A stretch of DNA of 64,000 nt from Dehalococcoidia bacterium (GCA_009692865.1 SHYH01000001.1:9548-73547), one strand, 5' to 3'; shown: positions 1 to 57,459, counted from the first letter of the stretch. Numbers and translations are program-made. The notes: a model not told the origin generated them from the sequence alone.

Positions 1-130
1 TAGATACGGGGCCTTCGGCCACCCCCTTCCTGGAAGGAAGGGGGTCGAGATTCTCTCTGGGGGATACCCCCAGACCCCCCACCAAAGGGACTTCGCCCCT
101 CTGGACTCCCCTTATTTCATCACCCTGTTA
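1..130 (+). mobile_element. Family-A MITE-like palindromic element, copy A1 (left part cut by window edge)
   Basis: Hairpins CCCCCTTCCTGGAAGGAAGGGGG and TCTGGGGGATACCCCCAGA, then right terminal inverted repeat TTTCATCACCCTGTTA. The final TTA (128-130) is the stop codon of the adjacent minus-strand gene. Confidence 0.75.
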
Positions 131-1015
131 GGCCGGGAAGATGGAGGAGACCACCTCTTCAATGCTGCGGTGCACCTGGTGATCGTCGGTGACGGCCCAC
201 GTCACCGCCACCTGGCACGCACGTCGTGGGGAGATCCCCTGGGCAATGAGCTTGCCCGCGTAGATGAGGAGACGGGTGCTAGCCCCCTCTTGAAGGCCGT
301 GGTCCCGCAGGTTACGGACCTTCTCGCCTACCTTGGCCAGGGCCATGGCCGCGTCTGCGTCCACGCCCGATTCGTGCTCGACGATCTTGGCCTCCAGCTC
401 CCGCGGCGGGTAGTCGAACTCGATGGAGACGAACCGCTGCCGGGTACTCTGCTTCAGGTCTTTGAGGGCGCTCTGGTAGCCGGGGTTGTAGGAGATCACC
501 AGAAGGAAATCCTCGTGGGCCTGGAGAAGAATGCCCTGCTTCTCAATGGGCAGGATCCTGCGGTGGTCGGTGAGGGGGTGGATGAGGACTGTGGTGTCCT
601 TGCGTGCCTCTACAATCTCGTCCAGGTAGCAGATGGCCCCCACCTTCACCGCCCGGGTCAGGGGGCCGTCGATCCAGCGAGTGCTATCGTGCTCCAGGAG
701 ATAGCGCCCCACCAGGTCGCTGGACGTCAGGTCTTCGTGGCAGGCGATGGTGATCAAGGCCAGCCGATTATCCAACAAGCCGTCCCCGTCCCCCGCCACT
801 CTAGCGCTGGAGTGGCGTAGGCGCCATGCCATGTACTCGATGAACCGCGTCTTGCCACAGCCCGTGGGCCCCTTGAAGAGAACGGGGAGTTTCTGGGCGT
901 AGGCAGCCTCGAACAGCTCAATCTCGTCCCCTATGGGAACGTAGAAGGGCTCTTCGGTGACCCCGAACTCCTCAATGAGATACTCTTTGTAGAGCTTCGT
1001 CGTCTGCCCTGTCAT
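128..1015 (-). CDS. CbbQ/NirQ/NorQ/GpvN-family MoxR-type AAA+ ATPase
   Basis: 295-aa ORF with Walker A GPTGCGKT and Walker B ICYLDEI. Overall similarity to the CbbQ/NorQ family recognised by eye. Confidence 0.85.
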
Positions 1016-1022
1016 TTGCCTC

Positions 1023-1631
1023 CTATCCTAACCCCTTCCATGCTACCCGTGCCCCCCAGAGCTCTCGGAGTCGCGTGTGCAGTCGCTCCAAGTCTCCGTT
1101 GTTCTGAAGGACCACGTCGGCGTGATTGAGCCGCTCCGCCTGGGTCATCTGGGCATTGATGCGTCCCCGGATCTGCTCCTCGGTCAGGTTGTTGCGCTGC
1201 TGAAGACGCTGGACCACCTTGTCGGCGTCCGTCGTGGTCACCCACACCTCATCCACCAGGTCCTTCCACCCCGCCTCGATGAGGATGGCCGCCTCCACCA
1301 CCACGGCCTTGGCTTCCTTCACCCGCTGCTCCTGGATGATCTCGCTGATGCGCTGGCGGATCTTGGGGTGGGTAATGGCGTTCAGCTTCTCCAGGGCCTT
1401 GGGGTCGCTGAAGACGATGCCGCCCAGCTTCCTGCGATCCACCTCCCGGTTGGGCTGGAGGATGTCCCGCCCAAAGGCCGCCACTAACTCTTTCCACCCC
1501 TGGGTGTCGGGCAGGTAAACGCTGTGCCCTACCCTGTCGGCATCGATGAGAAAGGCGCCCAGGGATTCCAGGAAGCGTGACACCTCGCTCTTGCCGGTCC
1601 CTATGCCTCCGGTCACGCCAATTACAATCAT
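1023..1631 (-). CDS. coaE: Dephospho-CoA kinase
   Basis: N-terminal P-loop [12 protein letters not shown], 202 aa, typical CoaE length and layout. Confidence 0.9.
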
Positions 1632-1751
1632 AACGCTCCTCGAAGATGGACGTTCTCTGGGCCCTTGGCAACCCCTCTACGCCTCACAAGCCCATTTCCG
1701 CATTGTAACCATCGCAGGCAGGGGGGTCAAGACGGGCCTGGGAAGAGGTGC

Positions 1752-1875
1752 AAAGTCCCAGAACAGCCACCTGGGACGAGCAAAGGGTGAGAGTTGTTTG
1801 GGAAGGGCTTATGGGGAACCCTTTCTTACAAGAAAGGGTTCCCCATACCTCTCCTAAAGATCCTGCAACACCCAC
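1752..1875 (+). repeat. Family-D palindromic repeat, copy D1
   Basis: Central 32-nt palindrome GGGGAACCCTTTCTTaCAAGAAAGGGTTCCCC flanked by arms GAGAGTTGTTTGGGAAGGGC / CCTCTCCTAAAGATCC. Related copies at 46429, 57305, 58741 and 60295. Confidence 0.7.
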
Positions 1876-1966
1876 GCTGGCCACCGCCGATACCGGCCCA
1901 GCGGCGGAAGACCTTCCTGTACGTGGGTACAGGGCACGCCCTGCCATGTGGTAAAATGCTTCCGCT

Positions 1967-3382
1967 ATGGAAGAAACGAAAGCTCCACCAGCCCAGCTTC
2001 GGGGCCTGCCCAGCGTGGACCGGGTGCTGGCCCACCCAGCCCTCCAGCTTCTCCAACAGCACTACCAGCGGGAGATGGTGGTGGGCCTGGTGCGCCGGCA
2101 CCTGGATGACGTGCGCACAGCCCTGCGCCAGGAGGGAGGGCCTGTCCCCACGGTGGTAGAGGTCGCCCAAGCGGTGGCGCGTCGGGCCGCCGCGCGATGG
2201 CATCCCTCGCCTCAGAAGGTCATCAACGCCACAGGGGTCATCATCCACACCAACCTGGGGCGCGCTCCCCTGAGCGATGACGCCGTGGAGGCCATCCGCC
2301 AAACGGCGGGGGGCTACACCGACCTGGAACTGGACCTGGAGGAGGGGGGGCGCGGGTCTCGGCAGGCCCACGTGGAGGACCTCCTCTGCCAGTTAACCGG
2401 CGCCGAGGCTGCCCTCGTGGTGAACAACAACGCCTCGGCCGTGCTCCTGGGCCTGGCTGCCCTGGCGGCGGGCAAGGAGGTCATCGTCTCGCGGGGCGAG
2501 GCGGTGGAGATCGGCGGCGGCTTCCGCATCCCGGACGTGCTGCGCCAGAGCGGCGCAAGGCTGGTGGAGGTGGGCACCACCAACAGAACCTACGCCGCCG
2601 ACTACGAGGAGGCCATCACCGAGGACACGGCCGCTCTCCTACGAGTCCACACCAGCAACTTCCGCATCTCCGGCTTCACCCACAGCCCCACCACCGAGGA
2701 GCTGGTGGCTGTGGGCCAGCGCCACCGGGTCCCCGTCCTGCACGACCTTGGCAGCGGGTGTCTCCTGGACACGACCCAGTTCGGCCTGGCCTACGAGCCC
2801 ACATCCCAGGACAGTGTTCGAGCAGGCGTAGCAGCCGCCTTCTTCTCAGGCGACAAGCTCCTTGGGGGGCCCCAGGCGGGCATCGTGGTGGGCCAGGGGG
2901 AGTACATCCGCCGCCTGGCGCGCCATCCCCTGGCCCGGGCCGTCCGCATCGACAAGCTAAGCCTCGTGGCCCTGTCCGTCACCCTCATACACTACATCAA
3001 GGGAGAGTCGGTTCAGAAAGTGCCGGTGTGGAGGATGGTGGCCGCGACCGCCGCGGAGCTCCGGCGCACGGCCCGGCAGTGGGCCAAGCAGATAGGCCCC
3101 CGCGCTGGGGTGGCGGCTGGCCTCTCCACCATAGGGGGGGGAAGCCTTCCGGGGGAGACCCTCCCCACCTGGCTGGTTGCCATTGATACCGGCGAGACGC
3201 CCGGGGGCGCCGTGGCCCTAGCCGCCCGCTTGCGCGCCCAGGCGCCCGCCATCGTGGCCCGCATCGAAGAGGAGCGGGTGATGCTGGACCCCCGCACCGT
3301 GCAGCCAGACGAGGAGGTGGCCTTGCTTATTGGGGTGCGCGAAGCCTTGGCGGGGAGCGCCGCCCCAGGGAGGCAATCGTGA
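1967..3382 (+). CDS. selA: L-seryl-tRNA(Sec) selenium transferase
   Basis: 471 aa, N-terminal LPSVDRVL segment, PLP-lysine motif FSGDKLLGGPQAG. Confidence 0.9.
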   Translation: MEETKAPPAQLRGLPSVDRVLAHPALQLLQQHYQREMVVGLVRRHLDDVRTALRQEGGPVPTVVEVAQAVARRAAARWHPSPQKVINATGVIIHTNLGRAPLSDDAVEAIRQTAGGYTDLELDLEEGGRGSRQAHVEDLLCQLTGAEAALVVNNNASAVLLGLAALAAGKEVIVSRGEAVEIGGGFRIPDVLRQSGARLVEVGTTNRTYAADYEEAITEDTAALLRVHTSNFRISGFTHSPTTEELVAVGQRHRVPVLHDLGSGCLLDTTQFGLAYEPTSQDSVRAGVAAAFFSGDKLLGGPQAGIVVGQGEYIRRLARHPLARAVRIDKLSLVALSVTLIHYIKGESVQKVPVWRMVAATAAELRRTARQWAKQIGPRAGVAAGLSTIGGGSLPGETLPTWLVAIDTGETPGGAVALAARLRAQAPAIVARIEEERVMLDPRTVQPDEEVALLIGVREALAGSAAPGRQS

Positions 3383-56843: not shown

Positions 56844-56868
56844 TCCTCATCCTCTCTCTCAGGCAAGT

Positions 56869-57165
56869 TTAGTCGGTTACCTTGGCCAGGACTTCGCTCT
56901 CCCGCAGGATGAGGAGCTCCTCATCGCCATCCTTGAGCTCCATCCCTGCATAGCTGCGGTACACCACCATGTCGCCCACCTTCAGCTCCATGGGGACCTT
57001 TTTCCCATCGTCCCCAACCCGTCCCGGCCCCACGGCCAGCACCTTCCCCTCCTTGGGACGCTCCTTAGCGGTGTCAGGGAGAAAGATACCCCCCTTGCTC
57101 ACCTCCTCCTGCTCACCGGGCTTCACCACCACGTTATCCGCCAAAGGCAGGTATTTCTTCGGCAC
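56869..57165 (-). CDS. groS: Co-chaperonin GroES
   Basis: 98 aa, LKPLADNVVVK-type N-terminus (YLPLADNVVVKP), mobile loop. Confidence 0.95.
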   Translation of the reverse strand: MPKKYLPLADNVVVKPGEQEEVSKGGIFLPDTAKERPKEGKVLAVGPGRVGDDGKKVPMELKVGDMVVYRSYAGMELKDGDEELLILRESEVLAKVTD

Positions 57166-57198
57166 AGCTCGCCTTCCTTTCCCTTCAAATGTCGATCG

Positions 57199-57225
57199 TT
57201 AGCAGTCTCGCCATCCGAGTGCTAA
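57199..57225 (-). promoter_or_regulatory. CIRCE operator (HrcA binding site)
   Basis: TTAGCAGTC-N9-GAGTGCTAA versus consensus TTAGCACTC-N9-GAGTGCTAA. Lies between the promoter and groES. Confidence 0.85.
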
Positions 57226-57236
57226 TCCCAAGCGGT

Positions 57237-57266
57237 ATTATAAGGTAGCCCTCTTCCGGGTGTCAA
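57237..57266 (-). promoter_or_regulatory. Sigma-70-type promoter of groESL
   Basis: Minus strand: TTGACA, 18 nt spacer, TATAAT, immediately upstream of CIRCE. Confidence 0.55.
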
Positions 57267-57304
57267 GGGAAGACGCGCCTGGGCCTTGATACGAGCGGTC
57301 ACCT

Positions 57305-57459
57305 ACAGGGAGAGTTGCTGGGAAGCTCCCCAGACTAGTACTTGGGTTAAGTCCCAAGACAGCCAACTAGGACGAGCAAAGGGGGAAAGTTCTTTGGAAA
57401 GAGTTCCCCTGACCTCTCCGAAAGAATCTCCCACCCTCAACGTCTTCCTCAACCTGCTA
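57305..57459 (+). repeat. Family-D repeat, copy D3 (degenerate) ending in an A-type terminal fragment
   Basis: AAGTCCCAAGACAGCCAACTAGGACGAGCAAAGGGGGAAAGTTCTTTGG... arms with a decayed core. Ends CTCAACCTGCTA, whose CTA is the PAC2 gene stop. Confidence 0.5.

Follow-up and report, generated by a model that had tools for sequence, protein, structure and literature searches.

A 64,000-nucleotide (nt) stretch of a Dehalococcoidia metagenome-assembled genome (MAG; GCA_009692865.1, SHYH01000001.1:9548-73547; G+C = 64.6%), hereafter the window, carries a short dispersed repeat whose ends, according to an original prediction made from this DNA, coincide with the stop codons of flanking genes. Approximately 17 copies, or ~1 copy per 3.5 kb, were recovered with nhmmer using a profile built from a 3-copy seed. 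The repeat consensus is 147 nt long with the ends TAGCAGGGTGCTGAAAAAC...GTTTTTCAGCAGCCTGCTA, and in one orientation it reads TAGCAGGGTGCTGAAAAACCCTTTCGACCATCCCCCTGGCCCCCTTCCTGGCCAGGAAGGGGG...CTGGGGGACACCCCCAGACCCCCG.CAAAGGGGCTTCGCCCCTCTG.ACTCCCCTTTTTCA.CAGCCTGCTA. It is bounded by terminal inverted repeats of ~17 nt, TA-G-CAGG(G/C)TGCTGAAAA, which take the form TAGCAGGGTGCTGAAAA at one end and TTTTCAGCAGCCTGCTA at the other, the matching ends being abbreviated as TAGCAGGGTG...CACCCTGCTA. The single strand of the consensus is predicted to fold into an outer stem, formed by the paired ends, around three hairpins (-76 kcal/mol, z = -6). Individual copies range from 41 to ~195 nt and have no coding capacity; some are internally deleted, some are only end fragments, and some contain an extra hairpin module. 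Two variant families have the central hairpin in common with the main repeat but differ from it at their ends. An Rfam scan of the whole window gave no match at gathering score to any structured RNA family, a BLAST search of the consensus against plasmids returned hairpin matches of 34-37 nt only, and no description of a 147-nt repeat family in Dehalococcoidia was found in a limited literature search.

To assess the proposed coincidence with stop codons, we required at each site a long open reading frame (ORF) with coding-type G+C content at third codon positions (GC3), reading towards the element and ending exactly on its outermost triplet, and gene identities were taken from Pfam. Seven of the eight coincidences named in the original prediction proved exact, while at the eighth only a probable end remnant is present. 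Copy A (1-130, plus strand), whose left side is cut by the window edge and which has the extra hairpin module, has its right terminus at TTA 128-130, and this triplet is the exact TAA stop of a CbbQ/NorQ-type AAA+ ATPase gene (128-1015, minus strand). The right terminus of copy C (7484-7631, plus strand), TTA 7628-7630, is the TAA of argB, and positions 47516-47518 of copy L (47370-47518, minus strand), whose far end also reads C-TAA, are the TAA of jag. Copy M (49003-49150, plus strand) ends in CTA 49148-49150, the TAG of a gene encoding a PQQ beta-propeller protein. The yidD TAG at 50440-50442 belongs to a 41-nt mini-copy (50402-50442, minus strand) in which left-end sequence is joined to the terminal CTA; nhmmer missed this copy, and it was recognised as internally deleted through an empty site in a relative (L145). 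Positions 53515-53517 of the internally deleted copy O (53515-53615, minus strand) are the TAA of an M16 peptidase gene on the plus strand, and those at 55218-55220 of the 38-nt right-end fragment Q (55183-55220, plus strand) are the TAG of groEL, after which comes the terminator hairpin of groEL itself at 55157-55182. The eighth site, at the TAG of a PAC2 gene (57457-57459), retains ~18 nt of end-like sequence (R, 57442-57459, plus strand; ...CTCAACCTGCTA), of which only TAGCAGGTTGAGGAAGAC resembles an element end; it is a probable solo remnant, because TAG followed by CAGGTTG is unlikely to arise by chance (by our own estimate ~0.007 occurrences of TAG then CAGG[GCT]TG are expected among the window genes).

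Four further sites had been described as near-coincidences. Copy E (11204-11351, plus strand) indeed lies close to the argJ stop, 9 nt downstream of it. As for the claim that a copy lies near the end of relE, relE was not identified, but the stop of a gene-like ORF lies 8 nt from copy K (36734-36874, minus strand; right end ...CACCCTGCTA intact, left end truncated), ahead of its right end. The TGA of ubiD (22382-22384) sits inside the degenerate right end of copy H (22245-22392, plus strand; left end TAAAAGGGTG). At the stop of a DHDPS/4HFCP-synthase fusion gene (18236-18238), TAG is followed by CAGGGCGTGCTG and is abutted by a possible remnant S (18224-18238, plus strand; CAGCACGCCCTGCTA), which is plausibly a solo element end; relatives have a different upstream gene at this position.

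To determine what these sites looked like before insertion, syntenic relatives with ~87% DNA identity to the window were recovered via the PQQ, ArgB and GroEL proteins, the window PQQ protein being 100% identical to NCBI EXR55_00285. Loci outside the window carry L numbers, and ~1.1 Mb of sequence was examined in all. The empty PQQ site in L145 reads ...GGCAAG TAG CGGGGAG, whereas the window reads ...AGCAAG TAG CAGGGTAATG...CAACCTGC TAG CGGCGGG, with the copy running inward as CAGGG...CCTGC between its two TAGs. For yidD, the empty site in L145 is GTCCCC TAG AGCCTTGCTGG and the window has GTCCCC TAG CAGGGGGATGG...CAACCTCC TAG AGCCTTGCTGG; here the copy reads inward CAGGGGG...CCTCC, and the sequence past the second TAG is AGCCTTG, as in L145. 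The argB site, empty in both L146 and L147, reads GTGGGC TAA CGCCTTGCGG in L146 and GTGGGC TAA CAGGATG...CACCCTGC TGA CGCATTGTG in the window, the flank past the stop being CGCCTTG in L146 and, after ...CCCTGC TGA, CGCATTG in the window. Thus, TA stands at both junctions and once in the empty site at PQQ and yidD, while at argB the second TA has decayed to TG (CA at the left end of copy C). A TA-containing target was duplicated around the element at all three sites, as had been supposed, and the accompanying proposal that insertion restores the stop and leaves the ORF intact also held, since the empty sites stop at the same codon and the protein ends are unchanged.

Relatives lacking the element pointed the same way at further genes. 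The M16 gene carries TAG at the same codon in L116 (95% amino-acid identity) and in L152, jag carries TAA at the same codon in L145, and the PAC2 gene in L150 carries TAG at the same codon without any remnant. The groEL site differs: the window protein ends ...DYGGM and those of relatives (L150, L151, L152) end ...DY or ...DF, so that three extra codons (GGM; window 55221-55232) separate the element fragment from the ancestral groEL stop position. No junction could be read downstream of jag and M16, nor at two copies private to L145 (sites X and Y), because these regions could not be aligned across genomes.

The reverse situation was also found, with copies present in relatives but not in the window (L145 944-1090 and 8187-8355; L146 2168-2293); the window site opposite the L146 copy (16040-16090) is empty and reads GGCC-TAG-CGGG. 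At the site of copy F (12706-12857, plus strand; ends decayed, AAG...CCA), the window and L146 (5551-5698) have the same flanks but copies in opposite orientations, so that either this TA was hit by a second insertion or an inversion took place between the terminal repeats. Because presence and absence differ in both directions and copies stand in opposite orientations at one site, the repeat family is mobile, or was until recently. Copy E is present in the more distant L149 (9090-9242, 77% DNA identity) and missing from the closer L146 (7041-7101, 87%) and from L147, a distribution that suggests precise loss or parallel insertion.

To assess whether the coincidence extends beyond the window, 174 unique termini were located by the CAGG(G/C)TG anchor in the window and in loci from ~30 Dehalococcoidia assemblies. 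A converging gene-like ORF with its stop between -120 and +160 nt was present at 74 of the 174. In 70 termini the converging gene stopped 0-120 nt before the terminus, and in 28 of these (40%) the stop was exactly the terminal triplet. Any other stop-terminus distance occurred 1-3 times each, and in only 4 genes did the stop lie inside the element. The 28 stop-coincident cases came from the window and at least 8 other assemblies and involved 11 left and 17 right element ends. Under a null of uniform position, 28 of 70 has p ~1e-39; element ends are therefore enriched at stop codons beyond chance, as the original prediction anticipated. Its statement that all intact termini end in TA did not hold, however: T is present in 81% and A in 83% of the 174 termini, and in the window copies C, E, F and G have one end that reads CA, AA or TG.

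The original prediction had attributed the landing on stops to the scarcity of TA in a GC-rich genome. To evaluate this, a local null was constructed from 691 element-free gene-like ORFs, in which motif sites were counted from the stop through up to 120 nt of noncoding 3' flank and the share represented by the stop itself was determined. The expected share at the stop was 20% for TA, 37% for YTAR (Y = C/T, R = G/A) and 48% for CTAG, compared with the observed 40% (28/70). The observed value lies above what TA alone would give (p = 8e-5) and is consistent with both the YTAR and CTAG nulls, so that the idea of a TA-containing target stood, but scarcity of TA gave too low a share and a YTAR/CTAG preference is needed as well. 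A whole-region null over all intergenic TA, YTAR and CTAG sites was dropped in favour of the local 3'-flank null because conservative gene calls inflate the intergenic class. The preference is visible in the flanks themselves: of the 174 termini, 67% have C and 21% have T as the base ahead of TA, and at stop-coincident termini that base is a pyrimidine in 23 of 28 (82%) versus 46% at 527 unoccupied TAG/TAA stops (Fisher p = 1.7e-4). Since this base is the last base of a host codon at the stop-coincident termini, the preference is not part of the element. A YTAR/CTAG preference, rather than TA scarcity or selection, thus fits the stop excess quantitatively. As a side observation, TAG was the commonest stop among 771 element-free gene-like ORFs from all loci (372 TAG versus 244 TGA and 155 TAA, based on rough gene calls). 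TAG as the commonest stop is unusual in GC-rich bacteria.

Taken together, these data establish TA in a C/T-TA-G/A context, ideally CTAG, as the integration target, of which at least the TA is duplicated. The repeat is small and noncoding, has terminal inverted repeats and a target duplication read from empty sites, and exists in many dispersed copies that differ between relatives, all features of a transposable element of the miniature inverted-repeat kind (MITE). A REP/REPIN identity was considered and set aside, REP/REPIN sequences being short imperfect palindromes that go with a RAYT gene and lack the target duplication that is present in this element. We therefore regard the repeat as a non-autonomous cut-and-paste transposon of ~147 bp that has spread through uncultured Dehalococcoidia, duplicates TA at YTAR/CTAG targets and lands on stop codons passively, and we give this combined reading a probability of roughly 0.8. 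The element integrates at a TA within YTAR, with CTAG best, and the terminal TA is followed mostly by G and in some cases by A. On either strand a YTAR site reads TAG or TAA, and in these compact GC-rich genomes 37-48% of YTAR/CTAG sites in gene 3' flanks are stop codons, so that insertions often hit stops. The left TA together with the first element base rebuilds TAG or TAA, which leaves the protein unchanged and the insertion tolerated. The element is probably moved by a transposase of the IS630/Tc1/mariner type, which duplicates TA, and would presumably join the 3' untranslated region of the upstream gene. Because YTAR is a stop codon on both strands, elements between convergent genes can have both ends serving as stops, as is the case in L083. 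Neither dedicated recognition of stop codons nor selection for a 3'-end function is needed for the numbers seen.

Several observations weigh against this reading or against parts of it. The gene calls behind the null models are our own rough calls from ORFs and GC3. The third terminal base is G in 74% and A in 21% of the 174 termini, while its neighbours are conserved in more than 90%. Both the ancestral stop and the triplet on the element side are TAA at argB and jag, so that a 3-base TAA duplication fits better there; were the duplication strictly 2 bases and the G supplied by the element, additional G-to-A changes would have to be assumed at both sites. Furthermore, the ~1.1 Mb examined yielded no autonomous element whose ends match. 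Pairs of end motifs 0.4-3.5 kb apart turned out to be two separate copies or a single copy split by an IS481-like insertion sequence encoding a 381-aa integrase-type transposase (L009 6433-7896), a DDE_Tnp_1 gene in L152 lacked matching ends, and solo end motifs outside known copies were truncated copies or chance occurrences (16 found versus ~9.5 expected by our own estimate). Since no such partner came to light, placement in the IS630 superfamily rests on resemblance of target and ends, and we infer IS630/Tc1/mariner-type descent as the probable origin of the element. The duplication appears to be either 2 or 3 bases long, with 2 favoured because the element ends are symmetric; at PQQ and yidD a 2-base TA duplication fits without mismatch, the element starting with G and ending with C.

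The length of the duplication bears directly on two alternatives in which the MITE is the same but its transposase differs. If an IS5-type transposase moved it, all four bases of YTAR would be duplicated, as is known for IS5 (PMC5009759), and the element proper would run CAGG...CCTG with perfectly symmetric ends. This would suit the Y-T-A-R flank logo, in which both outer positions are less conserved than the core, and it agrees with argB (CTAA/CTGA), jag (CTAA/CTAA), yidD (CTAG/CTAG) and one copy with CTAC at both ends (L054). The PQQ site decides against it: the empty site has GTAG, but the window copy has CTAG at its far end, which makes this C part of the element and excludes a 4-base duplication there. 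In addition, among the 6 full-length copies whose flank is not a pyrimidine or whose third base is rare, only 1 had at its other end the complement that a 4-base duplication predicts, and a hand tabulation of third base against opposite flank (6/13 versus 8/34, roughly p = 0.1) was not significant. We consider IS5-type movement unlikely. PIF/Harbinger and the ISL2/IS1031 groups make 3-base TAR duplications, and were the same to apply here, the stop codon itself would be the duplicated unit. Such a duplication requires fewer subsequent mutations than the others at the four sites that are informative (PQQ 0, argB 1, jag 0, M16 1), yet it demands asymmetric ends, with one extra base at one end only, and the end in question varies, being the model's left end at PQQ and argB and its right end at jag. 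Nor is there a significant end-to-end correlation, the base at one end of the 51 full-length copies being no significant predictor of the flank at the other, and a 3-base duplication is accordingly very unlikely in our estimation.

A different explanation is that the stop position is itself selected, the element being a host 3'-end module (a terminator, an RNA stabiliser or a translation-termination context) whose copies are kept for that function. The strong structure of the predicted fold would suit such a role, as would the retention of the hairpins from one subfamily to another, where some of the changes are paired (G-C to A-U in 10 copies, GGGG/CCCC to CCCG/CGGG in 3), and the greater likeness between species of element copies (85-95%) than of orthologous genes (75-87%). 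The paired changes mark subfamilies, however, and therefore represent few independent events. The share of termini at stops is what the target motif alone predicts, and left and right ends take part in similar numbers (11 and 17), so that no single RNA strand is favoured and no orientation-specific function is needed. A terminator scan showed no enrichment, with 13 terminator-like sites where 10.3 were expected, and the native groEL terminator is still present after the fragment. It is accordingly quite unlikely that the element has been co-opted as a standard stop-plus-large-stem-loop module setting mRNA stability or termination for hundreds of Dehalococcoidia genes, a reading under which it may be one source of the unusually high share of TAG among the stops of these genomes. 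The chance that the coincidence is an artefact of short spacers, or of ORF calls that run on to an in-frame TAG of the element, is negligible. The element end does read TAG inward, and one third of the ORFs entering it would stop there; the other two frames would then stop inside the element, and the 4 such cases against 28 at the terminus rule out ORFs merely running into the repeat. In addition, genes of relatives without the element have their stop at the same codon, and the null of uniform position fails by the wide margin given above.

The transposon reading is in keeping with the wide distribution of the family. In all, 228 nhmmer hits were obtained over the window and the loci from ~30 assemblies, with 51 copies full-length and retaining both ends, and an element-core pattern scan returned at least 114 stretches, all in Dehalococcoidia/Chloroflexota MAGs, among the matches listed from ~30 assemblies. 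Locally the density can be far higher, with 8-10 copies per 8 kb, some of them near-tandem and ~200 nt apart, in OZ253478.1 1-8000 (L067) and 184001-192000 (L079). Complete long-read genomes in which the family occurs include OZ253478.1 and OZ240219.1. Among the copies of the window, copy B (4528-4722, minus strand) has its left end, TAACAGGGTGATG, at 4722 and faces the start of ffh/SRP54 rather than a stop, and copy G (20358-20553, plus strand) combines an extra internal module with decayed ends. In copies A, B and G, the left terminal repeat is followed by an additional hairpin insert of ~45 nt (CCCCCGATAGATGCGGGGC...), and several copies in other genomes are likewise 165-190 nt long. One variant family is represented by copies D (8470-8620) and I (24810-24960), both on the plus strand and of the same type, with the central hairpin of the main repeat between different ends. 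The second comprises copies J (31890-32030, minus strand; central hairpin CCCCCTCTCCTGCAGGAGAGGGGG), N (52030-52170, minus strand) and P (53620-53780, plus strand), the last of which adjoins copy O directly. The central hairpin module common to the variant families is of the CCCCCTTCC...GGAAGGGGG type and their ends are quite different, so the repeats look modular.

A YTAR target that is a stop codon, and that the element end restores, supplies a sequence-level reason for a very high transposon density in a compact genome without gene breakage. In gene calling and annotation, some stop codons should be expected to form part of a repeat, and the presence or absence of copies can be used as a strain marker. 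Short-read contigs of the source organism and its relatives, uncultured bacteria of groundwater and lakes, were seen to end in or beside a copy (L001, L116 and the start of L145), so that metagenome assemblies are fragmented by the family. Unrelated to the repeat, window positions 38896-43960 contain tandem paralogous gene sets with 72-94% DNA identity, comprising three genes of the enoyl-CoA hydratase-like kind together with hotdog-fold (FAS1_DH_region-type) genes in repeated pairs, each followed by an unannotated ORF of ~150 aa.

Among known systems, the classic bacterial MITE linked to IS630 is RUP of pneumococcus (PMC2229807). Like the Dehalococcoidia repeat, RUP is short (107 bp) and noncoding, has terminal inverted repeats and many copies, and inserts at TA (PMC2229807, PMC3049150). 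It differs in having a known autonomous partner with matching ends, IS630-Spn1, the counterpart of which was not found for the repeat in the ~1.1 Mb examined, and in tending to land in insertion sequences, with no report of insertion at stop codons. The host of RUP is AT-rich, so TA is not limiting there. Correia elements duplicate TA. The Correia/NEMIS elements of Neisseria are, like the repeat, MITEs of ~107-155 bp with terminal repeats, those of the Correia elements being long and forming RNA stem-loops, and they occur in large numbers between genes and are transcribed together with the genes beside them (PMC2229807). They are further characterised by IHF sites, promoter elements and RNase III cleavage, and no stop-codon association this strong has been described for them.

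With respect to the target, IS630-family elements duplicate TA (PMC2170065), and IS630 prefers TA within CTAG according to Tenzen & Ohtsubo 1991 as cited in PMC2170065. IS630 of Shigella/E. coli, ISY100 and Himar1 all share the TA target with the repeat, and IS630, on that same cited account, shares its CTAG preference as well. In our own comparison, the end of the Himar1 mariner element, TA-ACAGGTTGG..., has the layout TA-N-CAGG-N-TG, as does TA-(G/A)CAGG(G/T)TG of the repeat. The IS630/Tc1/mariner elements are autonomous, 1.1-1.3 kb long and equipped with a DDE/DDD transposase, whereas here only a 147-bp derivative was seen. IS5 has the same target logo, C/T-TA-A/G (PMC5009759), but duplicates all four bases, which is not the case at the PQQ site. 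The closest parallel for the supply of stop codons is BOX of Streptococcus pneumoniae, which provides the stop codon at the extreme 3' end of 36 genes with no evident protein truncation (PMC3049150) and thus, like the repeat, furnishes the stop of an upstream gene. BOX is nevertheless built from boxA-B-C modules and has no defined TA duplication, and its stop lies within BOX rather than in a regenerated target. Both TA/CTAG targeting by IS630-type elements and repeats that supply stop codons have therefore been described already, and nothing is overturned; the repeat is a new and very abundant element of a known kind, in which known transposon behaviour, with no new mechanism, is displayed unusually cleanly.

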